In this document: positions 2,624-62,698 of the stretch, piece by piece
Position numbering within the stretch: the first letter of the stretch is position 1
How the letters are laid out: each line of letters opens with the position of its first letter
Source: Escherichia coli
Lineage (GTDB): Bacteria; Pseudomonadota; Gammaproteobacteria; Enterobacterales; Enterobacteriaceae
Strand: one strand, 5' to 3'
Length of the DNA: 64,000 nucleotides
Assembly (NCBI RefSeq): GCF_048403405.1
Contig: NZ_CP183129.1
Position numbers and translations under genes: made by a program
Notes under the pieces: generated by a model
Database searches by the model: none
What the model saw: only the letters and a program-made list of their open reading frames with translations
What the model was told of the DNA's origin: nothing

Positions 2624-3926
2624 GCGCCTGTACCTTGGCTCCGTAATCATTAATCGGCTGCCATTTCGCTGGCAGTCCGGTGAAATCTGCTTGCGCTACG
2701 CCAAGACGTACCGCCTGATCAATAACAATGCGCGCAACGTCAAAGTGACGTGCACGCGGATACTGTGACAGATATTCGCGTACCACCAGACCAAGATCCA
2801 GCGGCACTTGTCTGGTTTTGTACACGGCGAGTTGTTCTTCGATGATCGCCGCCAGCTGTTCGCGGATCTCGTTAAACTCTTCGTATTCCAGATCCTCAGG
2901 AAGTTCCCCAGTCACTTCTTCATCGCGCAGTGCCATCTCTTCGTCACGCATATCCAGCAGACGATCGGCATTGGCATAAGTTAGCGCCCACGGCTCATCA
3001 AAATAGGTTTGTACCGACTGACGTAACCGCTGAGCAAAGACACGGTTTTTATCCATATCGATAGCGGTACGGATAAATTTATGTACGTGGCGGTCGTAGC
3101 CAATCCACAAATCGATGGATTGCTGGCCCCAGCTGATAATACGGTCAAGTTTGCTCTGCAGATCGAATACCAGACGATCGACAAAATGCAGATCGTCATG
3201 GGTCATCGTCGCATCCTGAATGCGCAACAGATTAGCCTGCAATTTGTCGCCTGCCGCTTCCAGCGTATCCTGCAATTCACGCAGCGTTCCGGAAGTTTCC
3301 GAAAGCAACAATTCACAGCTGGAGATCGCCGCCCGCCAGTCTTTGTTCAGCAACTGGGCGATATCGTCCTTCACCTGCTGCTGCTGTTCGTCCATCAGAC
3401 GTTGCGTCAGGTCGATACTGTCGAAAATTTCTGCTACCGAATATTTCAGTGGCGCATAAACATTACGGTGCCAGTGAAATTCATCACCGCCCTCTTCGGC
3501 GGCATCTGCCGCGCGTTTGAGCTCACCCGCCACAATCGACAACTGCATAGAAAGGCGCAGCGTAGAAAACTCGCGCTGACGGATGTAATAGTCAGTAATG
3601 CCGATGCCGAGCGGCGTCAGACGGTAAATTGCGTTCCCTTCCGCCTGCTCGCTGGTAAAGCGGTTCAGCAGACGTTGACGCACCATGTCGTTGATCGCGT
3701 TGTTGGCGCGCACGCCGATGGTTTCGCTGGTTTGCTCAAACGCATCACTCACATGGCGGAATGCATCCACCAGCTCGCCTTCACTCATCTCACCATCCAG
3801 ACGCTCGCCGTTCAGCGTGGCAACCGCCAGCAGAAAAGAGAGTCGGTCTACCGGCAGCGAGATGGAGAAGTCATTTTTTCTGGCCCAGGCAACCAGTTCG
3901 GGGACTGTCTGGGAAAATTCACTCAT
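2604..3926 (-). CDS. mukF: chromosome partition protein MukF (kleisin)
   Basis: 440-aa ORF; sequence recognised as MukF; sits between mukE and smtA in the expected order. Confidence 0.93.
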
Positions 3927-46664: not shown

Positions 46665-47408
46665 TTAACTGGCTTTCTTTTTCGGGCGTCCACGTTTTGC
46701 CGGTGTCACGCTCCGGGTCTTACGCGGGGCGCGGGTGGCCGCTTTGGGCTGCGGCTCCGGCTTCGGTTTCAGCTCCCGCTCCAGTCGTTCAATCTCTTTT
46801 TTGACGCCTGCCTGACAGTCGAGCTGTGTCGCACGTTGCAGGTGCGCCAGCGCGCCGGCGGCATCACCAGCGTCACGCAGAAACAGACCGGTGATTTTGT
46901 GCAGCTTTGCGCGCACTTCATCAGGCATGTCAGCCGTGGCGGTCAGTTCAAGGGTGTCCGTCAGCAGGCGGGGATCCACAGACTCACCGGCAGCGTGAGC
47001 GCGCATGGCCGCAAGCGCCACCTCCTCGGTGAACATGTACGGCGGGGTGCGGCGGTGTTTCCCCGGCATGGTCAGACCATACTTCAGGGCATAACGGGCA
47101 ATCTCCAGCGCACCGGCAATATCGCCGGTATCCAGACGCCACAGCATGACCGTCATCAGAATGTCATCCTGTGCACCTTTGCCCTGCTCCAGCACGCCGT
47201 TCACCCACGGCAACCAGAACGGCAGCAGTTCGCGTTTTTTCGCGGCCTTCAGCTCTTTTGAATAAATCGCTTTCAGTGTGCGCTGGTCTGCGGCCAGCTT
47301 GACCAGCATCTGCTCATAGACAGTTGCATGTCGCAGCGGGGCGGCTTCCCGCTGCGCGGTCATCGCTGCCGAGACCCGCATCATGTGGCGCTGTGCGGGA
47401 CTCGTCAT
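46665..47408 (-). CDS. M: terminase endonuclease subunit M
   Basis: 247-aa ORF; P2 order. Confidence 0.87.
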   Translation of the reverse strand: MTSPAQRHMMRVSAAMTAQREAAPLRHATVYEQMLVKLAADQRTLKAIYSKELKAAKKRELLPFWLPWVNGVLEQGKGAQDDILMTVMLWRLDTGDIAGALEIARYALKYGLTMPGKHRRTPPYMFTEEVALAAMRAHAAGESVDPRLLTDTLELTATADMPDEVRAKLHKITGLFLRDAGDAAGALAHLQRATQLDCQAGVKKEIERLERELKPKPEPQPKAATRAPRKTRSVTPAKRGRPKKKAS

Positions 47409-49571: not shown

Positions 49572-51344
49572 ATGACCATCACCACAGACACCACTCTTTT
49601 ACACGACCCGCGTCGTCAGGCGGCGCTGCTGTACTGGCAGGGGTTTTCCGTGCCGCAGATTGCCGCCATGTTGCAGATGAAACGCCCGACGGTGCAGAGC
49701 TGGAAACAGCGCGACGGCTGGGACAGCGTTGCCCCCATCAGCCGTGTCGAAATGAGTCTGGAAGCGCGGCTGACCCAGCTCATCATCAAACCGCAGAAAA
49801 CCGGCGGTGACTTCAAGGAAATTGACCTGCTGGGACGCCAGATTGAACGACTGGCACGGGTCAACCGCTACAGCCAGACCGGCAACGAGGCAGACCTTAA
49901 TCCGAACGTCGCTAACCGCAACAAAGGCGGGCGGCGCAAACCGAAAAAGAATTTTTTCAGTGACGAGGCCATCGAAAAGCTGGAGCAGATTTTCTTTGAG
50001 CAGTCTTTCGAATATCAGTTGCACTGGTATCGCGCCGGGCTTGAGCACCGCATCCGCGATATCCTGAAATCCCGCCAGATTGGCGCGACGTTTTATTTTT
50101 CCCGCGAGGCGCTGCTGCGCGCCCTGAAAACCGGTCATAACCAGATTTTTCTGTCGGCCAGTAAAACGCAGGCGTATGTGTTCCGCGAATACATCATCGC
50201 CTTTGCCCGTCTGGTTGACGTTGACCTGACCGGTGACCCGATTGTCCTGGGCAATAACGGCGCAAAACTGATTTTTCTCGGCACCAACTCCAACACCGCG
50301 CAGAGCCATAACGGCGACCTGTACGTCGACGAGATTTTCTGGATCCCGAATTTTCAGGTACTGCGTAAGGTGGCATCAGGTATGGCCTCACAGAGTCACC
50401 TGCGCTCGACCTATTTCTCCACCCCGTCCACGCTGGCACACGACGCCTACCCGTTCTGGTCGGGTGAACTGTTCAACCGGGGACGCGCCAGCGCCGCCGA
50501 ACGCGTGGAAATCGACGTCAGTCATAACGCCCTTGCCGGTGGGCTTCTCTGTGCGGACGGCCAGTGGCGACAGATTGTCACCATTGAGGACGCCCTGAAA
50601 GGCGGCTGCACGCTGTTCGACATTGAGCAGCTCAAACGCGAAAACAGCGCCGACGATTTTAAAAACCTGTTCATGTGTGAATTTGTTGACGACAAGGCGT
50701 CGGTGTTCCCGTTTGAGGAGCTGCAACGCTGCATGGTCGACACGCTGGAAGAATGGGAAGACTATGCGCCGTTTGCCGCAAATCCGTTCGGCTCCCGACC
50801 GGTATGGATTGGTTACGACCCGTCACACCGTGGCGACAGCGCAGGATGCGTGGTACTGGCACCGCCGGTGGTGGCCGGTGGCAAATTCAGGATCCTTGAG
50901 CGTCACCAGTGGAAAGGCATGGACTTTGCCACTCAGGCTGAATCCATCCGCAAACTCACCGAAAAATACAACGTCGAATACATCGGTATTGATGCCACCG
51001 GCCTCGGTGTCGGCGTGTTCCAGCTCGTGCGCTCGTTCTATCCCGCCGCGCGCGACATCCGCTACACGCCGGAAATGAAAACCGCAATGGTGCTCAAGGC
51101 AAAAGACGTCATCCGCCGTGGCTGTCTGGAATATGACGTCAGCGCCACCGACATCACCAGCTCGTTTATGGCTATCCGCAAGACCATGACCAGCAGCGGA
51201 CGCAGCGCCACCTATGAGGCCAGCCGCAGCGAGGAAGCCAGCCACGCCGACCTCGCCTGGGCGACCATGCACGCCCTGTTAAATGAGCCACTCACCGCCG
51301 GTATCAGCACCCCGCTGACATCCACCATTCTGGAGTTTTACTGA
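49572..51344 (+). CDS. P: terminase ATPase (large) subunit P
   Basis: ORF 49542..51344; start placed at ATG 49572 with GAGGT SD (MTITTDTTLLHDPRRQAALLYWQ...), 590 aa. Confidence 0.9.
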   Translation: MTITTDTTLLHDPRRQAALLYWQGFSVPQIAAMLQMKRPTVQSWKQRDGWDSVAPISRVEMSLEARLTQLIIKPQKTGGDFKEIDLLGRQIERLARVNRYSQTGNEADLNPNVANRNKGGRRKPKKNFFSDEAIEKLEQIFFEQSFEYQLHWYRAGLEHRIRDILKSRQIGATFYFSREALLRALKTGHNQIFLSASKTQAYVFREYIIAFARLVDVDLTGDPIVLGNNGAKLIFLGTNSNTAQSHNGDLYVDEIFWIPNFQVLRKVASGMASQSHLRSTYFSTPSTLAHDAYPFWSGELFNRGRASAAERVEIDVSHNALAGGLLCADGQWRQIVTIEDALKGGCTLFDIEQLKRENSADDFKNLFMCEFVDDKASVFPFEELQRCMVDTLEEWEDYAPFAANPFGSRPVWIGYDPSHRGDSAGCVVLAPPVVAGGKFRILERHQWKGMDFATQAESIRKLTEKYNVEYIGIDATGLGVGVFQLVRSFYPAARDIRYTPEMKTAMVLKAKDVIRRGCLEYDVSATDITSSFMAIRKTMTSSGRSATYEASRSEEASHADLAWATMHALLNEPLTAGISTPLTSTILEFY

Positions 51345-52363
51345 TGAGCAAGAAAAAAGGGAAAACACCGCAACCTGCGGCAAAAAAAATGACCGCCAGC
51401 GCCCCGAAAATGGAGGCATTCACCTTTGGCGAGCCGGTGCCGGTACTCGACCGCCGTGACATTCTGGATTACGTCGAGTGCATCAGTAACGGCAGATGGT
51501 ATGAGCCGCCGGTCAGCTTTACCGGTCTGGCGAAAAGCCTGCGTGCTGCCGTGCATCACAGCTCGCCGATTTACGTCAAACGCAATATTCTGGCCTCGAC
51601 ATTTATCCCGCATCCGTGGCTTTCCCAGCAGGATTTCAGCCGCTTTGTGCTGGATTTTCTGGTGTTCGGTAATGCGTTTCTGGAAAAGCGTTACAGCACC
51701 ACCGGTAAGGTCATCAGACTGGAAACCTCACCGGCAAAATATACCCGCCGTGGCGTGGAGGAGGATGTTTACTGGTGGGTGCCGTCCTTCAACGAGCCGA
51801 CAGCCTTCGCGCCCGGCTCCGTGTTTCACCTGCTGGAGCCGGATATCAATCAGGAGCTGTACGGCCTGCCGGAATATCTCAGCGCCCTTAACTCTGCCTG
51901 GCTGAATGAGTCGGCCACGCTGTTCCGCCGCAAGTATTACGAAAACGGCGCTCATGCCGGATACATCATGTATGTCACCGATGCCGTGCAGGATCGCAAC
52001 GATATCGAAATGCTTCGCGAAAACATGGTGAAGTCGAAAGGCCGCAACAACTTTAAAAACCTGTTTCTCTATGCCCCACAGGGGAAAGCCGACGGCATTA
52101 AAATTATCCCCCTCAGTGAAGTGGCGACGAAGGACGATTTTTTTAATATCAAAAAAGTCAGCGCCGCAGATCTCCTGGACGCACACCGCATCCCCTTTCA
52201 GTTGATGGGCGGTAAGCCGGAGAATGTCGGGTCACTAGGAGATATTGAAAAAGTGGCAAAGGTCTTTGTCCGCAATGAACTCACTCCATTACAGGAGAGA
52301 ATAAAGTCAATAAATGAATGGTTAGATATGGAAGTCATAAAATCCCTTGATTATAACTTATAA
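51344..52363 (+). CDS. Q: portal protein Q
   Basis: 339-aa ORF overlapping the P stop; P2 order. Confidence 0.88.
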   Translation: MSKKKGKTPQPAAKKMTASAPKMEAFTFGEPVPVLDRRDILDYVECISNGRWYEPPVSFTGLAKSLRAAVHHSSPIYVKRNILASTFIPHPWLSQQDFSRFVLDFLVFGNAFLEKRYSTTGKVIRLETSPAKYTRRGVEEDVYWWVPSFNEPTAFAPGSVFHLLEPDINQELYGLPEYLSALNSAWLNESATLFRRKYYENGAHAGYIMYVTDAVQDRNDIEMLRENMVKSKGRNNFKNLFLYAPQGKADGIKIIPLSEVATKDDFFNIKKVSAADLLDAHRIPFQLMGGKPENVGSLGDIEKVAKVFVRNELTPLQERIKSINEWLDMEVIKSLDYNL

Positions 52364-52405: not shown

Positions 52406-53113
52406 CTATATATACTTCCTTTTTACTCTACTTAATTCTATCACTGATGAGGAGTGACAAAATGACAAATTAATAGTATCGATATAATCCAAAATTTGAC
52501 TCTCAACCTCAATAAAAATATTTTTGGGCCCATTACTAATCGATATACCGATTTCATCCAAAACAGCCATCATTTTTCTCTGATGAGTTTTATATTTATA
52601 GTCTTTATTTTCCTCTGTAATATGTGCATTGGCTTCCTCAATAACACATTTGATTCTAGATATTATTTCTAGATAATCTCTCGAAACAGATATATCACCG
52701 CCTTGCGCTTCAGGGAACATAACCCTATACCATCTAAAAAAATTAACTTTCTCTGGATAGATGCTACTTCTTTTAGTTAACTCAGCACTTGCAAATTCTC
52801 TAAACATCGTCAGATGACTAGTGTAATTACTATTATTATTATTTTTAACTCCAGCGTTATATGTCATCAAAGCAATCATAACACCAAAAACGGTAACAAA
52901 AGTTGTTATAAGCCATCCAAACGCCTGAAAATACATTACTATACCAGATGTTTTTTCCGCAAAAAATTTTAAGCACTGGCTATCGAAGCATATATCACGC
53001 TCATATAGCTTTTCATTCTGAATAGTTTCAAAAAGAGAAATTAGCGAAAAAATCAAAAAAAGAGCTGACGACACACCGACAATATATTTGAGAAGTCTAA
53101 TATTTGCATTCAT
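52406..53113 (-). CDS. 2-TM membrane protein, translationally coupled to the upstream reverse transcriptase (candidate effector)
   Basis: 235 aa; start ATG overlaps the RT stop (ATGA at 53113-53110); two N-terminal hydrophobic helices; AT-rich. Confidence 0.6.
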   Translation of the reverse strand: MNANIRLLKYIVGVSSALFLIFSLISLFETIQNEKLYERDICFDSQCLKFFAEKTSGIVMYFQAFGWLITTFVTVFGVMIALMTYNAGVKNNNNSNYTSHLTMFREFASAELTKRSSIYPEKVNFFRWYRVMFPEAQGGDISVSRDYLEIISRIKCVIEEANAHITEENKDYKYKTHQRKMMAVLDEIGISISNGPKNIFIEVESQILDYIDTINLSFCHSSSVIELSRVKRKYI

Positions 53114-54384
53114 AATGGTTTTAAAGATGCCAATCTAGATTTAAAACACTCCAGTTTTTCTTTAAATGATTCAGAGCGAGTAAGAATAATCATCTTATAT
53201 CTCGTCAAATCATATTTTCTTTTATACCAATGTTTATTTTGATTACCTTTCGAATACGACAACTCTAAACTTTTTATAGCTGCATCAATCACAGCAACAT
53301 CTCTTTTAGATGGCATCGGTTTTATTGCCTGCAACTGTTTCTTGAATGATTCATATTTTTCATGCCCAACACGGCCAAGCTTATTCACTCTCCCCATACA
53401 TCTATTGAATTCTTTTCTGTATGCAACACTTGTTTTTGTGTTATTTTTTGCCGCCAGTAATTTCAAATTATGTATAGATGCCCTGATTCTTTTGACTTCA
53501 TCGGATGGTAGTCGAGGTGAGTCATAGTCAACTCTTAAACCATGTACTTTTATAGGTTCAGATGAACAGTGAAATATTTTTGTTTTGTGCTTATTTATCG
53601 GCAAGTCATGCTCAGAAAGCATCCTCTCTATATGGCTTTGCATTTGAGAAAAATCATAATTACTTATTTTAGATGACACGGTAATATCATCTACCAAACG
53701 CGTATAAACAAGTCCTTTCCTCTGCGCACGTCTTACCACATCCCCTTCAACAGCGAATAAACACAAAGTTGCTATATAGCTTGATGTTAAGGCCCCCTGT
53801 ACGACAAAATCATCCTTAGTACATATATCCACCAAGTATTCAAGAGCCTCATCCTTAATATGCAATATCTCCTCAAACACGCTCCTAACCAGATCTCTAT
53901 GGATATTATCGAAAAAATTACTTATATCCACCTTGAGAACTGTTTTTGCTCCACAATGAGCCTTTGCACATGAAACATAGTCACGTTTGACATTAGAATT
54001 TAAAACATCATTTTTACTGGGAACTGAACCAAACAAAAATGAAGGAAAAACAACCAATTCCTTAAAAATACGTTTATTAATTCTACTCTGTAATAATCTC
54101 ATTTTAGGATGTAGGGAGTAGACAATCCGTTTGCTTCCGTCAATTTTGGGAATTTCTTTTAGAGTATATTTCTCATCTAATGATAATTCTGCAATAGCTT
54201 TAAGCTCTTCAACAGAAATCGATAAAGCCTTTGACAACTTTTCAAGTGTTGTGATAGGAGCATTGGATTTGCTGTATGGTTTAAATTTATCCATAAACAT
54301 ACCATTCAAATTCAAAGTTACGTACGGTCTTCCCATACTCAAGGGTGGAACAGCAGAGATGCTTACATCAACAATTGTCAGCAA
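53110..54384 (-). CDS. retron-type reverse transcriptase with about 100-aa C-terminal extension
   Basis: RT motifs IPKIDGSKRIVY, CAKAHCGAKTVLKVDISNFFDNI, QGALTSSYIATLCL, YTRLVDDITV (YxDD), IKVHGL. Track start is TTG 54384; in-frame ATGs at 54336, 54300, 54294. Confidence 0.75.
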   Translation of the reverse strand: MLTIVDVSISAVPPLSMGRPYVTLNLNGMFMDKFKPYSKSNAPITTLEKLSKALSISVEELKAIAELSLDEKYTLKEIPKIDGSKRIVYSLHPKMRLLQSRINKRIFKELVVFPSFLFGSVPSKNDVLNSNVKRDYVSCAKAHCGAKTVLKVDISNFFDNIHRDLVRSVFEEILHIKDEALEYLVDICTKDDFVVQGALTSSYIATLCLFAVEGDVVRRAQRKGLVYTRLVDDITVSSKISNYDFSQMQSHIERMLSEHDLPINKHKTKIFHCSSEPIKVHGLRVDYDSPRLPSDEVKRIRASIHNLKLLAAKNNTKTSVAYRKEFNRCMGRVNKLGRVGHEKYESFKKQLQAIKPMPSKRDVAVIDAAIKSLELSYSKGNQNKHWYKRKYDLTRYKMIILTRSESFKEKLECFKSRLASLKPL

Positions 54385-54625
54385 CAGCCTCTGCTATCTT
54401 TCGACCGTACGTAATGTCGTCGGCTACGGCACCATCGTAGTTGACGACGGTGGGGCCTCGCTGATAGGTCCATAGTGGACGCTTTTTTGTAAAAGCAAAA
54501 ACTGACAATTTAATGTTGTTGACTGCCGCATACCAAGCGAATCGCTGGTGCGCTAAGAATAATGCAACAAAAAAATAAGAATTTCAACCGGGTAACTGCA
54601 AGCCAGCGACATCGTTTAGCGCGCA

Positions 54626-54644
54626 GTGCTTTCCCCGCCTCGCC
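54626..54644. other. phage cos site (19-nt cohesive-end sequence)
   Basis: GTGCTTTCCCCGCCTCGCC is the reverse complement of the P2 cohesive end GGCGAGGCGGGGAAAGCAC as I recall it; located between Q and the A-side genes as in P2. Confidence 0.7.
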
Positions 54645-54805
54645 CGCCCGCTTCGTGGGGCGGTTTTAATGCAGGTGCAATACCGCTTTTGAGCCACGCC
54701 CGTCCTGGCGGACGCACGGCCGGAACATGCAACTCCGGCACATGCAAAACCATGCACATATTGCACGCAGAAAGATAAATGCCAAAATACCTAAATCAAC
54801 TTCCA

Positions 54806-56644
54806 TTAATCAGCCAGATAAGGTTCAACTTTATCTTCCCATACACTAAATAAAGGCAAACAAGTTAAATAAAAGATAAAGACACAGGCAAAAACTGAAG
54901 TTGGTTGATAACAATGATTTACAGTATACCTGCCATGAGCCATCGTGTGTCTAATTGCAGCACCACCTTTCATATTGAACAATAAATCCATAGTCAATAC
55001 ATGATCACTATCAAAAACACCTTCCATTTCACTCCTATAATTTGCAAGCATTTGAGATAGGCTAGTAGCCTCCTCAAAAAGCGACACATCTATTTTCGTT
55101 GTTTCTTTTCTTCTTAATTCTAAAATCCATCTAATTGAATTCTCCAATTGCGGCAATAACAAATAACAGGCAGACACATAATCTCCCTGCCAAAGCTTAT
55201 AAAACCCCAAAGAAAATATTTCTGCATACCCAGGTGGAACAAATGCACTTTGTTGTGAGATTGGGTCAAATGTATTTTCATTTAATGAATACCTAGCCAA
55301 CACACTTTGCCTAACGACTTCAAACTCACCACAAACATAGACCTGATGCTCAATGTTACTAGTTCTTAAATAATTTGCACAAGCATCATTTAAACTTATA
55401 TCCCCCGCAGGATCCAAAGGTGAACGACTTGCTACAACGCGCCCTCTATCATCATAAACAACCGTTTCACTCATATTAAGAAAAAAATGTTTTTTAGCAT
55501 CGGAACGAGCTCTTTCCATAATTTCACTGGCACTTACAATCTTAAATCTAGCAATTAAAGTTTTAATTACCCTTGAGAAATCCAATTGATTATAAACATG
55601 CTCTTTCTGAGCGATAACATCACTAAGATCCATTGGTATTGCAAAGAAGTGCATTTCATCATTGATTTGATCTCGAATAGAATTCAATTCCTCTCTAATC
55701 TTTTTAATTTCTTCATTCATTCCACCAATTGCTCTAAATTCGCCAAGAGCAACTCTTAACCAATGAGCCTTCAATATTGAAGATGAAGACTGTTCAAATT
55801 GAGCCAATGTTATTTCTGACGCTTTAATTCTGCACCGTCTTCCTTGCTCTTCCATATCGTTTTTAACATATAATTCAGACGCAAAATAAAACAATTTTTT
55901 CACTGCATCAAAATAAGACGCTCCACAATGCTCATCAGCTATCTTTTCTGCATTCTCAGCCAATTGCAAGGGACACAATAAATTATTCTTATAAAGAATT
56001 TCAGAAACTCTTAATACACCGGTGAATATACCAGAGTCTATTAATACATGATATAACCTTAATGTCGAATCAACTATCCCCCCTTGTAGTTGTTTTTTCC
56101 TGCCAATAAGCATGCGCGATATTGCGATACCTCTATCCAAGCAGTCAACAACATCAAAAATATGGATATCACCTGACTCTTGTTTTTCTATTAAAGTATC
56201 GCAAGCATCATTAACCATTAGAGAATATGACTCTATTGCTTTATTGGCAGAGTCTATATCCTTACGGTTATTTATCCATAAAACATCACACACCCTAGAT
56301 ATAATATAAGGATTATCGGAGTTTTCTTTAATACAAGTTAATATTGTTGAAAAACTCTCCTTATAATCTGAAGGCCTATAGCCCCTCTCAGGATAGAGAA
56401 TGATTTTTGGCTCAAAACCGATAATATCACCAGACCTAGAAAATTTAAAATTAAACAACGCACGTAATAAATAGCAAAGCCGCCAAGAACTTACATCGTT
56501 TTTTAGCTTGTAAGATGACAACAACTGAACAAAATAAGACTCCATATCAAAATGAGAATAACTTCTTGGCGATGATAATATACTGGCGTATTCACTTTTT
56601 TTAAAATCATCAACTGAAATAGAAAAAACATCAAACTCGCTCAT
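54806..56644 (-). CDS. large accessory protein of unknown function (612 aa) at the P2 tin/old position
   Basis: ATG 56644 with strong SD AGGTGAGGA; no Walker A or other recognised motif except a possible Rx4H (IRHTMAHGRY) near the C-terminus; AT-rich. Confidence 0.6.
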   Translation of the reverse strand: MSEFDVFSISVDDFKKSEYASILSSPRSYSHFDMESYFVQLLSSYKLKNDVSSWRLCYLLRALFNFKFSRSGDIIGFEPKIILYPERGYRPSDYKESFSTILTCIKENSDNPYIISRVCDVLWINNRKDIDSANKAIESYSLMVNDACDTLIEKQESGDIHIFDVVDCLDRGIAISRMLIGRKKQLQGGIVDSTLRLYHVLIDSGIFTGVLRVSEILYKNNLLCPLQLAENAEKIADEHCGASYFDAVKKLFYFASELYVKNDMEEQGRRCRIKASEITLAQFEQSSSSILKAHWLRVALGEFRAIGGMNEEIKKIREELNSIRDQINDEMHFFAIPMDLSDVIAQKEHVYNQLDFSRVIKTLIARFKIVSASEIMERARSDAKKHFFLNMSETVVYDDRGRVVASRSPLDPAGDISLNDACANYLRTSNIEHQVYVCGEFEVVRQSVLARYSLNENTFDPISQQSAFVPPGYAEIFSLGFYKLWQGDYVSACYLLLPQLENSIRWILELRRKETTKIDVSLFEEATSLSQMLANYRSEMEGVFDSDHVLTMDLLFNMKGGAAIRHTMAHGRYTVNHCYQPTSVFACVFIFYLTCLPLFSVWEDKVEPYLAD

Positions 56645-56798
56645 TCCTCACCTTTAAAGCACTTAACAAACAATCATGGTAAACAATACCAAACTGCAAG
56701 CAACGATTAAATACAGAAAACTCTTTCTGTCGAGATTTTTCAATAACACTAAATATATACAGTACGAAATTATCTAATATTGCGTGAATTTTTGCCAT
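56631..56798 (-). CDS. small hypothetical protein (55 aa) coupling gene A to the 612-aa gene
   Basis: ATG 56798-56796 overlaps the A stop (TAATG); its 3' end overlaps the 612-aa gene start by 14 nt. Confidence 0.35.
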   Translation of the reverse strand: MAKIHAILDNFVLYIFSVIEKSRQKEFSVFNRCLQFGIVYHDCLLSALKVRNERV

Positions 56799-59083
56799 TA
56801 TGTCCACTCCATTACTGTTGAGAATCCCGGCCACTCATCAATGACCGGATACGTGAATTTTTTCCCGCCATAATTTATGGTCGCTCCCCGAGCCAGCGCC
56901 TCAAGCTCCCATCGCTGTGGCCTGATACCGTTCTGAGCAAGGTCAACGCGGATACGGGTAATTTGCATTCGTTCCGACCGGGTCAGTCTGGCCGATGGCG
57001 CTATTTCATGCGGTTTTAACGGGCTTCCGTTTCTTTGCTGACGGTTTGGTCTTCTCAGACCGTGTTTTAATGCACCTCTGAGCGCCCTCACGACCTCCTG
57101 GTCATTCCATTCGATAACACCGTCATCTACCAGATTAAGCACTGCTACGGCGTGTTCAGAAGGCGTGGGAGCCGGTGACGAAGTATCACCACCGGTGAGC
57201 TTTCCACAGTTATTGACAGGACTCCGAGGCGCGGCGATGCCGCTTTTTAAAGTCAACGGCTCAACGACCGGAACTTTCGGCACAATGCGCCAGTCCGTCG
57301 TTCTGGTGATATGAATATGACGCGTGCCGAGATGCGGCGCGTAAATGCCGACCACTCTCTCGACTTCTTCCTCGTACTCGTTAACGTCATCCGACGGGCT
57401 ACGGGCGACCCTGACAGTCTGACAATCGCGCGGGACATTTGCCCCGCCCTGCGCGCTGATATACAACGCAAAATCACCACTGTCTGCGGCGGCGCGTGCA
57501 GCCTCGACGCGTTCGTCAAACTCATCAGCAATGCTGACGCCGCGAGGCAATTTGCGTAGTTCACGGTAAGCCCCCATTGTCGGCAGGCCAACCGTTTTAA
57601 ATTGCGGGATACGCCACGTTGACGCCCATGCGGTAACAGCCGCTGCAGTGTCTTTCAGCGGCCTGCCGGTATCGTTATCGAGCTGACCATCCAGTGCATA
57701 GCCGTCGATATTTTTTGAGATGTATTTCGCGATATATCCCGCAGCACCGCCCCGGTTAAGGTGTTTCGCCTGAAAACGGTTTCGCGCGGCTCCTCTTTCG
57801 TCGCCATCCTCTTTGAGCGCATAGCGACGCATGATTTCGATAATCTGGTTACGCTGGCGTGGATTACAAAAAAGCATCATATGCCAGTGCGGCGTTCCGT
57901 CGTGGTGTGGCTCGACGACTCGCAAACCGTAGACCTGTAAATCATTATCCTTGAATGCCGTGCGCATCAGGCTCCAGATACGGCAGAGATAACGCTGCGC
58001 ATCCTTCGGATTAAATGCCTCATCATTCCAGCCGTGATTAAGCTGCACGGTTTTACTTTCTCCTTTTCCGACCTGACGTGTCGGGTGATACTTTGACGGC
58101 GCGGTCAGCGTGATAAACATCCCCACATCACCCTCTGCGGCGGCGTAACGCTCAATACCGGCGATGGTGTTCATCAGCTCCATCCGGCGAATTTCAGGAT
58201 TAGAAATACTGCCCATCACCTTACTGATAAGGTCGATGCGCTCGCCGGTTTCCCTGTTTTCGAGGTCACACGATTTAAGAAATTCCAGATTTGCCTGGCG
58301 GCGTGCACGCACATCACGAATGGCGTGTTTACTGGCATAAGGAGAACGATCTTTATTGACCTCCCCGACAGCAATCAGTAACGCCTCATGCCAGCGCATA
58401 CGCTGGCCTTTAAGCTGATGAGTCCACCACTCATCGTTAAACAGGCGGGCAATGGCAGAATATGCCTGCCTCGTGGTCATCTGTCCTTTACGGTATTTTT
58501 TCCAGTAGAGCGGGGAAATATTGAAAGCACGTGCAGCGCCAGCAACATGACTATACAGGTGAGCCTGCGCCTCATCCGTAAACAGCGATTCTTTTTCGCC
58601 ATGCGCATCCACCCAGGCATCGCTGAGTTCCTCATACATCATGAAAAGCTGCGATGAGATACGGGCGGCAAACTTTTTCAGCTCCTTGTCATTCATTCCA
58701 GGCAGGCGCGCATAGTGGTCACGCTCTGCCAGAAACAGCAACGACGCGTCGGTGTTCATTTCATGGCGCTGATTCACGCGCTCAATGCGCGGCCATAAAC
58801 GACGCTGAAAAGTGGATGTGAGGAAATAAAACCCGTGTACCGGGCTTTTATTGCGCCGGATGTAGTCATAGCGTGAAGTAAACAGCGAGCGCAAAAAGTA
58901 AGGCAGGCGGTTAATCGTGGATAAAACCCCTTGCACCTGACGCATCTCGTCACGTGTAAGGGGTCTTTCGCGCCCGACGGCCTCGCGTGGCGCGTTCCAT
59001 GCATAAGCACCGGTAAACGTCTTACCGGTGCCTGCGGCAAATGCTGACGGAGGGACAAAACGCCCGGAGGCTTTAACGGCCAT
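56798..59083 (-). CDS. A: replication initiation protein A (rolling-circle nickase)
   Basis: ORF 56798..59125; start placed at ATG 59083 (MAVKASGRFVPP...), 761 aa; catalytic region YIAKYISKNIDGYALDG. Confidence 0.9.
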   Translation of the reverse strand: MAVKASGRFVPPSAFAAGTGKTFTGAYAWNAPREAVGRERPLTRDEMRQVQGVLSTINRLPYFLRSLFTSRYDYIRRNKSPVHGFYFLTSTFQRRLWPRIERVNQRHEMNTDASLLFLAERDHYARLPGMNDKELKKFAARISSQLFMMYEELSDAWVDAHGEKESLFTDEAQAHLYSHVAGAARAFNISPLYWKKYRKGQMTTRQAYSAIARLFNDEWWTHQLKGQRMRWHEALLIAVGEVNKDRSPYASKHAIRDVRARRQANLEFLKSCDLENRETGERIDLISKVMGSISNPEIRRMELMNTIAGIERYAAAEGDVGMFITLTAPSKYHPTRQVGKGESKTVQLNHGWNDEAFNPKDAQRYLCRIWSLMRTAFKDNDLQVYGLRVVEPHHDGTPHWHMMLFCNPRQRNQIIEIMRRYALKEDGDERGAARNRFQAKHLNRGGAAGYIAKYISKNIDGYALDGQLDNDTGRPLKDTAAAVTAWASTWRIPQFKTVGLPTMGAYRELRKLPRGVSIADEFDERVEAARAAADSGDFALYISAQGGANVPRDCQTVRVARSPSDDVNEYEEEVERVVGIYAPHLGTRHIHITRTTDWRIVPKVPVVEPLTLKSGIAAPRSPVNNCGKLTGGDTSSPAPTPSEHAVAVLNLVDDGVIEWNDQEVVRALRGALKHGLRRPNRQQRNGSPLKPHEIAPSARLTRSERMQITRIRVDLAQNGIRPQRWELEALARGATINYGGKKFTYPVIDEWPGFSTVMEWT

Positions 59084-59348
59084 ATGAGCCAAAAGCCTCT
59101 GAACAACGCTTGCTGAGTTGCTCAACCTGCGCGTTTAAATCAGCAAAAGACTTTGCGCTTCCGGTCAGAATATCGTGATGCATCAGGCCGGAAACGAGCT
59201 GGCTTAATTTCGGGTAATAACCAACCACCGCCAGCCATTCCTGACCGGCGTTTTTACCGCTTTCCGCTCTCTTTTTCTCGTGGAGAATAAACTGAAAGCT
59301 GTCACTGGTAACGACATAACGTTCGCCAATTTCAATACGAATGCTCAT
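59073..59348 (-). CDS. hypothetical early protein (P2 orf83 position)
   Basis: 91-aa ORF in early operon upstream of A. Confidence 0.6.
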   Translation of the reverse strand: MSIRIEIGERYVVTSDSFQFILHEKKRAESGKNAGQEWLAVVGYYPKLSQLVSGLMHHDILTGSAKSFADLNAQVEQLSKRCSEAFGSYGR

Positions 59349-61702: not shown

Positions 61703-62698
61703 ATGTCTATTAAAAAGCTCGATGATGGTCGTTATGAAGTGGACGTCAGACCGCAGGGTGCAGATGGAAAACGTATCAGGCGGAAATTTAAAACTAAAGG
61801 TGAAGCTCAAGCATTCGAACGTCATGTGCTGGTTAACTACCACAACAAAGAGTGGCTGGAGAAGCCAGCCGACCGCCGAACTCTTACAGAGTTGTTAGGC
61901 AGATGGTGGATATATCACGGAAAATCACATGAGCGTGGAAATATTGAACGGGGGCGTTTGACGACAATAATCGCCAAATTTGCAGAAATGGGGGTGTCCA
62001 GAGCTGACCAGTTAACAAAGAAAACGATAACTGATTATCGAGTTGTAATGATGAACGATGGTCTAAAACCAGCCAGCGTAAATCGGCATCTGGCAATAAT
62101 GAGCGGGATGTTCACCAAGTTAATTGACGCCGGTGAATACCACTCTCACAACCCGTTCCGTGAGGTTAAGCGGTTACGTGAAGCTGTTACAGAAATGGCT
62201 TTTTTGTCCAGTGAAGAGATTACGCGGCTGTTATCCATGCTTGATGGTGATGAGTTAAATGCAACTCTGGTCTGCCTTTCTACTGGTGGACGCTGGAGTG
62301 AAGTGTCTAATTTGAAAGCTGAACACATCATTAACCAGATGGTTACGTTTATGAAAACTAAAAACGGAAAGCGCAGGACAATTCCCGTTTCGCAGGACCT
62401 GATTAAAAGGATCAAGACCAAAAATTCAGGCAGGCTTTTTAATGCCAGTTACTACAAAGTGCGTAACGCTCTCAGGGAAGTAAAACCCGATTTACCTGAC
62501 GGACAAGCAGTACATGTTTTGAGGCATACATTTGCCACACATTTTATAATGAATGGAGGTAACATAATCACATTGCAGCGCATCCTGGGTCATTCTAACA
62601 TTCAGCAAACTATGACCTACGCACACTTTGCACCGGATTTCTTACAAGATGCTGTGACTCTTAACCCGGTGTCAGGAATGTCCATAATGCGTCCATAA
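61703..62698 (+). CDS. int: tyrosine integrase
   Basis: 331 aa; MSIKKLDDGRY N-terminus; catalytic HVLRHTFATH and TYAHF; adjacent to attR. Confidence 0.9.
   Translation: MSIKKLDDGRYEVDVRPQGADGKRIRRKFKTKGEAQAFERHVLVNYHNKEWLEKPADRRTLTELLGRWWIYHGKSHERGNIERGRLTTIIAKFAEMGVSRADQLTKKTITDYRVVMMNDGLKPASVNRHLAIMSGMFTKLIDAGEYHSHNPFREVKRLREAVTEMAFLSSEEITRLLSMLDGDELNATLVCLSTGGRWSEVSNLKAEHIINQMVTFMKTKNGKRRTIPVSQDLIKRIKTKNSGRLFNASYYKVRNALREVKPDLPDGQAVHVLRHTFATHFIMNGGNIITLQRILGHSNIQQTMTYAHFAPDFLQDAVTLNPVSGMSIMRP

Follow-up and report, generated by a model that had tools for sequence, protein, structure and literature searches.

What is the GC-rich block that surrounds position 54626 in this stretch of Escherichia coli chromosome (64 kb, hereafter the window), with its hairpin-capable sequence and its cluster of ATGCA repeats? 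The GC content at 54600-54749 is 60-62%, versus 30-38% in the flanking genes, which form AT-rich cargo on both sides, so that the GC-rich block described around cos in an earlier note on this DNA is real. The site is an ordinary one of an already known kind, and both the GC-rich block and the ATGCA repeats are conserved parts of cos, not an RNA gene. By sequence comparison, a full-length P2-like (Peduovirus) prophage very probably has its cos packaging site at 54618-54769, because the P2 19-mer is found here together with a P2-like gene context and a near-identical terminase.

The 19-nt cohesive-end sequence GGCGAGGCGGGGAAAGCAC has one exact match in the 64 kb, at 54626-54644 on the minus strand, which corresponds to the P2 orientation. 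The same sequence is annotated as cosL/cosR in P2 (NC_001895) and is found at the end of P4; the cohesive end previously proposed at these positions is, thus, an exact and unique copy of the P2/P4 19-mer. A 55-bp core common to P2 and P4 has been described (Ziermann and Calendar, 1990, as cited in PMC9594776, PMC5694545 and PMC3931495). By our own count this core consists of 7 + 19 + 19 + 10 bp, and its equivalent in the window, at 54619-54673, is identical to P2 at 53 of 55 positions and to P4 at 52 of 55. The whole conserved module is 152 bp long (54618-54769), with cargo sequence beyond both edges: BLAST matches in about 100 phage records cover positions 169/170-320 of the query, equivalent to 54618/9-54769, and the alignments diverge outside these limits. 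Regions related to the cos region of the window are present in 2127 of 5426 complete genomes, and at least five complete E. coli genomes share the 601-base segment around cos with 100% identity.

The prophage occupies about 35.5 kb (~27,170-62,700), and its late region, from ~27,170 onwards, is ~97% identical to P2. The genes are arranged in the order M, N, O, P, Q, cargo, cos, cargo, A and, further on, int, the plus strand of the window corresponding to the minus strand of P2. The terminase small subunit, gpM (46665-47408, minus strand; Pfam Phage_term_smal, E = 1e-47), is identical to P2 gpM at 243 of 247 residues (98%), and the large subunit, gpP (49572-51344, plus strand; Pfam Terminase_6N, Terminase_6C and Terminase_5), is identical to its P2 counterpart at 589 of 590 (99.8%) and carries a helix-turn-helix (Terminase_5) domain at its N-terminus. 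Capsid and scaffold genes lie between gpM and gpP. The portal protein gpQ is encoded at 51344-52363 on the plus strand (Pfam Phage_portal; RefSeq annotation of the identical locus), the replication gene A lies at 56798-59125 and the integrase gene at 61703-62698; the radical-SAM gene next to it probably belongs to the host. The genes int, A, P, Q, O, N and M are all intact. The cos site lies between the portal/terminase genes (Q, P) and the gene A region, as in P2, and it is internal in the prophage because attP is located elsewhere on the phage circle. No solved structure for gpM or gpP was found in a search by sequence.

The conservation of the site was studied in 120 IMG/VR loci fetched with the pattern GGCGWGGCGGGGAAAGCAY, to which P2, 186 and P4 were added, yielding 121 distinct cos regions; these represent 79 lineages, any two of which share less than 80% identity in the right flank. 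Conservation of the 19-mer in this set is circular, because the loci were fetched with that very pattern, and it was not counted. Outside the 19-mer, positions 54619-54625 (GCGCGCA) and 54645-54680 are near-invariant in the ungapped comparison of the 121 loci. Mean pairwise identity is 0.91 at positions -8 to -1 relative to the nicks and 0.84 at +1 to +36; it is 0.38 in the spacer (+37 to +95), 0.51 at +96 to +124 and 0.29 beyond +125.

The left, portal-side nick flank, AGCGCGCA (54618-54625), is the sole P2-type sequence to the left of the 19-mer: it is identical to P2 at all eight positions, identity further left is 28%, and the retron cargo starts at 54617. The GCGCGCA motif within it is invariant or nearly so in the 121 loci, including 67 in which the sequence further left is unrelated to P2 or 186. 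The right nick flank, CGCCCGCT (54645-54652), also consists of columns that are nearly invariant in the 121 loci. Its reverse complement, AGCGGGCG, reads as an imperfect mirror of the left flank, and the two flanks may, therefore, form an imperfect twofold-symmetric frame for both nicks. The constraint on either side is asymmetric, extending over only 7-8 bp on the portal side, while similarity to other phages persists up to ~54769 on the other.

The ATGCA repeats all lie on this second side. In the window, ATGCA starts at 54669, 54727, 54742 and 54752, and TGCA at 54670, 54676, 54728, 54743, 54753 and 54762. The segment 54645-54780 contains six copies of TGCA, versus 1.4 ± 1.0 expected, and four copies of ATGCA, versus 0.5 expected, numbers reached in none of 2000 dinucleotide shuffles, and it is the densest 136-nt stretch for TGCA in the entire 64 kb. 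The clustering of ATGCA/TGCAC repeats at about 54669-54770, pointed out in the earlier note, is thus a true enrichment over dinucleotide composition.

The positions of these boxes relative to the nick recur throughout the family. A proximal pair, ATGCA-GG-TGCA (54669-54679; family consensus ATGCAgTTGCAT, a near-palindrome), lies 25 and 32 bp from the nick; at these positions ATGCA is present in 119 and TGCA in 104 of the 121 loci, and, counted by lineage, ATGCA is found at 25 bp in all 79 and TGCA at 32 bp in ~94%. Two distal ATGCA boxes, ATGCAAAACCATGCA (54742-54756), are exactly 10 bp apart, at 98 and 108 bp from the nick. Of the 79 lineages, 65 have ATGCA at 96-98 bp and 62 have it at 106-108 bp, against a background of 0.4% per equivalent position, and boxes with at least four of the five bases matching are found in 75 and 78 lineages, respectively. 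The exact 10-bp spacing between the first two distal boxes is observed in 53 of 68 lineages. A third distal box is degenerate in the window (TTGCA, 54761-54765, 117 bp from the nick), and an ATGCA at 115-121 bp is found in 41 of the 79 lineages. The window boxes at 25, 32, 98 and 108 bp compare with a family mode of 25, 32, 97 and 107 bp. An additional ATGCA box, 83 bp from the nick (54727-54731) and part of a direct repeat (CCGGAACATGCAA / CCGGCACATGCAA), is found only in the window's own sub-lineage (e.g. loci L019 and L088). The phased ATGCA boxes are a family feature in the sense that they are defined by this comparison.

The sequence between the box sets behaves differently. The spacer of the window is only 24% identical to that of P2, despite an essentially shared terminase, and 36% identical to that of P4. 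In the 39 lineages with a spacer less than 35% identical to that of the window, which is the level expected by chance, the two distal boxes are retained in 31 and 28 cases. Boxes held in place in 79 diverged lineages, with a spacer that drifts to random-level identity, are what a protein recognition array predicts. This pattern, together with the P2-type terminase, supports the suggestion made earlier that the block is probably the terminase recognition region, and the ATGCA boxes are probably the recognition elements themselves.

The window and P2/P4 have in common the 19-mer, the hairpin-capable sequence, the boxes at 25, ~97 and ~107 bp, the position in the genome and a cognate terminase. 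The window differs from them in its extra ATGCA at 83 bp, a spacer 1 bp longer and the degenerate third box. Phage 186 (Eganvirus) has the same overall architecture, and the spacer of the window is 186-like, with 46% identity and a weak copy of the palindrome GCGCCAG..CTGGCG; the distal boxes of 186, ATGCAAAAC(A/C)ATGCAC, are almost identical to those of the window. However, the cohesive end of 186 differs at two positions (GGCGTGGCGGGGAAAGCAT), its nick flank has a T at +1, and the terminase of the window is P2-type. The alignment with the P2 and 186 cos regions that had been put forward as a check thus gives a match to the P2 cohesive end and to 53 of the 55 positions of the P2/P4 core, with ATGCA boxes that align with those of P2, 186 and P4; the refuting outcome named in the note, a lack of any match to the P2 cos sequence, did not arise.

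The palindrome in the middle of the spacer, GCGCCAGnnCTGGCGC, is represented in the window by a weak copy (54697-54710, five of six pairs). Its family position is 52-67 bp from the nick. Roughly half of the 79 lineages show register-specific pairing, whereas P2 lacks the palindrome. It is, thus, an optional rather than a universal element, and may be an optional terminator or protein site. A few compensatory variants (e.g. loci L099 and L109), sometimes with flanking A/T runs, have been observed in this palindrome.

The distal ATGCA repeats might instead be promoter or operator elements of the cargo adjacent to cos, as for old/tin in P2, rather than packaging signals. In P2, the start of the old-tin transcript (33424/33426) places, in our own reading of the sequence, a TTGAAT -35 element over the third ATGCA box; with the likely old/tin -35 at this place, an additional function of some boxes is conceivable. 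No gene starts at cos in the window, because the neighbouring gene (54806-56644) converges on it, and no promoter-like site was called on the plus strand at 54645-54800. The boxes persist under any orientation of the cargo, which is convergent in the window but divergent in P2 and in the phage pro147, and across the 79 lineages, with their differing cargo, their distance is maintained from the nick and not from gene starts. Moreover, the same boxes are present in P4, whose similarity to P2 is confined to cos. A regulatory function as the sole explanation of the repeats is, therefore, very unlikely, and a packaging function remains the preferred reading.

The neighbouring cargo is relevant to two further alternatives. 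The entire gap between Q and cos is filled by a retron of the Ec48 family (type IV, reverse transcriptase plus 2TM effector), with its genes at 52406-54294 on the minus strand: a reverse transcriptase (53110-54294; PADLOC RT_IV, E = 1e-176; Pfam RVT_1) and a 2TM effector with an intact 235-aa open reading frame (52406-53113; PADLOC 2TM_IV, E = 4e-85; RefSeq 'retron Ec48 family effector membrane protein'). By comparison with P2, the retron stands in place of the DNA between cos and the Q terminator and stops only 8 bp short of the nick. The Ec67 and Ec86 retrons of 186-related prophages likewise lie between cos and the packaging-gene terminator, at the end of the portal gene (for the position between cos and terminator: Dodd and Egan, 1996, as cited in PMC6868368 and PMC5694545), whereas the retron of the window belongs to a P2-type and not to a 186-type prophage. 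On the other side of cos, a gene on the minus strand (54806-56644) encodes a 612-aa protein with a DUF7380 domain (Pfam E = 2e-24), assigned to the candidate defence family PDC-S39 (PADLOC E = 2e-68). It occupies the position of old/tin in P2, and the same cargo is found in the P2-EC46 record (AM157366). Together, the retron and the DUF7380/PDC-S39 gene constitute the known cos-proximal defence hotspot of P2-like phages (Rousset et al., 2022).

Several features of the sequence on the retron side may be recorded here. A promoter-like site for the retron lies at 54587-54559 on the minus strand. Many loci of the family have an AT-rich tract (AAAATAAA-like) 20-35 bp to the left of cos, even where the remaining flank differs; the similar tract of the window, at 54572-54584, is ~20 bp further out, within the retron promoter region, and contains no IHF consensus. 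Two 7-mer inverted pairs are also found to the left of cos (54542-54548/54603-54609 and 54550-54556/54616-54622); they cannot nest as one hairpin, and are probably chance matches or part of the retron-promoter context. In E. coli strain 4621 (NZ_CP103479.1; 4106-4814 in locus L126), a frameshift splits the 2TM effector, and the annotation gives two CDS.

The conserved flank could also be mainly a homology anchor or recombination signal for the exchange of defence cargo, the boxes binding a recombination or architectural factor, and cos has indeed been proposed as the driver of cargo exchange at this hotspot (Rousset et al., 2022). The region is clearly mosaic: pro147 (locus L127) shares 54450-54687 with the window (97.5%) and differs in its right flank and cargo, and P2-EC46 shares 54672-54850 (99.4%). 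As these shared parts overlap, exchange points lie inside the conserved core (54672-54687). However, homology alone requires neither a 10-bp phasing nor a fixed distance from the nick, and the satellite P4, which is obliged to use the P2 terminase for packaging, keeps the same boxes. There is no IHF consensus in 54500-54800, and any conserved block can be expected to recombine as a side effect. Exchange at the conserved core is real, but it more plausibly results from the conservation than explains it, and we consider this alternative most improbable as an account of the boxes. It is equally improbable that cos survives here only as the remnant of a cryptic prophage, with a P2 cos sequence that is no longer functional. 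Decay does occur in this lineage, given that the retron effector is frameshifted in a genome that is 100% identical across 54300-54900. However, the prophage is full length, with all seven of the genes listed above intact, its terminase subunits are 98-99.8% identical to those of P2, the core and boxes are intact, and the same left junction is found in pro147, which is a plaque-forming phage. A cos site recognized by its own terminase is the reading that accounts best for these observations.

The hairpin noticed in the earlier note is present in the sequence as it was given: the arms CCGCCC (54644-54649) and GGGCGG (54658-54663) are separated by the loop gcttcgtg, and the hairpin-capable sequence (54644-54663, plus strand; terminator-like scan and fold) is followed by TTTT at 54664-54667. 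It does not appear to be conserved as a structure and is not exceptional for its composition. Folded as DNA, it has an energy of -7.1 kcal/mol (z = -0.37), and 67 of 200 shuffled sequences fold equally well; for 54640-54780, the z-score is -1.37. The left arm, which resembles the symmetric partner of GCGCGCA across the nick pair, is invariant, whereas the right arm is variable, with C-T in place of C-G at 54647/54660 in 52 of the 121 loci (43%). No compensatory change was found in the 121 loci in two pairing registers, many pairs being broken, and a selected structure was rejected on these grounds. The absence of compensation and a fold no better than that of shuffled sequences indicate that the hairpin is probably conserved as double-stranded sequence and not as a structure.

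The earlier note had taken the block for a non-coding RNA before dropping the idea, rightly for this block: an Rfam scan of 54300-55000 at E ≤ 1 yielded only a chance match of 19.9 bits, versus a gathering score of 67.9, and, with the unremarkable fold scores, this led us to reject an RNA gene. The least probable explanation of all is that the block encodes a structured RNA, or that the hairpin and T-run are conserved because they act as an intrinsic terminator (for example, one that catches read-through from the P-Q operon across cos): a terminator-like scan of the plus strand does find a 6-bp all-GC stem and an 8-nt loop followed by TTTTAATGCA, in the direction of P-Q transcription, and some family members have a spacer hairpin followed by T-runs, but the right-arm changes break the central pair, nothing is transcribed towards cos on the plus strand after Q in the window, because the retron genes are on the minus strand, and P2 already has an annotated terminator, tQ. 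The nearest real candidate for a non-coding RNA is the putative msr-msd of the retron (54319-54411, minus strand), which lies just upstream of the reverse transcriptase gene and ~215 bp to the left of cos. A 12-nt inverted repeat, TTACGTACGGTC (54411-54400) / GACCGTACGTAA (54330-54319), closes a 73-nt stem-loop region in this candidate, and the RNA fold of 54300-54560 has a z-score of -3.9, with extra hairpins at 54412-54500; the candidate has no match in Rfam.

How might the terminase make use of this site? After excision and circularisation of the prophage, the terminase (gpM as the small and gpP as the large subunit, with proheads) would recognize the module at 54618-54769 and nick the DNA twice, 19 nt apart, at the borders of 54626-54644, producing linear virion DNA with 5' single-stranded ends GGCGAGGCGGGGAAAGCAC. 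The nicking centre would lie at about 54618-54652, where the 19-mer is contained in an imperfect 8-bp inverted repeat (AGCGCGCA / CGCCCGCT) that would suit two symmetric nuclease subunits. A one-sided recognition array would follow, in the DNA that will form the right end of the mature genome, with boxes at 25 and 32 bp and then at ~97, ~107 and ~117-120 bp from the nick. The spacer of ~60 bp between the two sets of boxes would be free in sequence but fixed in length, with the distal array ~72 bp from the proximal pair. The boxes, being in 10-bp phase, would lie on one face of the helix, and would most likely be contacts for a terminase oligomer, either gpM or the N-terminal helix-turn-helix of gpP, wrapping or looping the DNA. 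The assignment of a protein to the boxes, the wrapping or looping of the DNA and the activity of the site in this strain are, at present, what the sequence leads us to infer. Functional support is indirect: the plaque-forming phage pro147 has the same junction between retron and cos on the left, with only 8 bp of P2-type left flank, and transduction of P2 cosmids is raised more than 1000-fold by longer flanks around the core. Two observations go against this mechanism: in contrast to lambda cosB, the recognition array and the packaging genes are on opposite sides of the nicking site, and the third box of P2 coincides with the likely old/tin promoter.

In phage lambda, a partly twofold-symmetric nicking site adjoins one-sided terminase-binding repeats, and staggered nicks give 5' cohesive ends. 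The cos site of the window seems to work in a similar way to the cosQ-cosN-cosB arrangement of lambda, with partial twofold symmetry at the nicking site and repeats on one side, although the parallel for P2 is drawn by analogy. P2 reportedly packages its DNA from monomeric circles. The two sites have no sequence relationship, the overhang is 12 nt in lambda versus 19 nt in the window, and the array of the window lies away from the terminase genes. The 12-nt end of lambda, GGGCGGCGACCT, has only one match with a single mismatch in the window, at 3323, which is the chance level, and none near cos. A lambda-type cos with an IHF site was consequently rejected, both the 12-mer and the IHF consensus being absent near cos.

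The array may be a general feature of packaging in the P2/186/P4 family. We give an even chance to the proposal that the ATGCA boxes form the terminase-binding array of the whole family: a palindromic pair at 25-36 bp and two or three direct boxes at 97-120 bp from the nick, the two parts keeping a 10-bp phase across a spacer whose length is constrained while its sequence is free. A gpM oligomer, or else the helix-turn-helix at the N-terminus of gpP, would read the array and wrap or loop ~100 bp of DNA, at the genome end that is remote from the packaging genes. In the literature searched, which comprised later papers that cite Ziermann and Calendar (1990), no experiment on the binding of gpM or gpP to ATGCA boxes and no cleavage data for the boxes were found. 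Papers on P4 satellites and P2 diversity do not dissect cos, a review of small terminases covers, among the relevant matches, only P22, and the papers that cite the 1990 study give, on cos, only the 55-bp core. The map of box phasing refines this picture modestly, and the deletion analysis of 1990 may already imply it.

For annotation, the GC-rich block is settled as the cos of a P2-like prophage. The GC-rich island is the conserved core of the phage, hemmed in on both sides by AT-rich defence cargo. The comparative map, with 8 bp on one side, ~125 bp on the other and phased ATGCA boxes, could be of use when minimal P2/P4 cosmids are designed for gene delivery. If the boxes are indeed a terminase-binding array, the geometry of packaging in these phages would differ from that of lambda, and the array would set the minimum that a satellite has to copy for its own DNA to be packaged.
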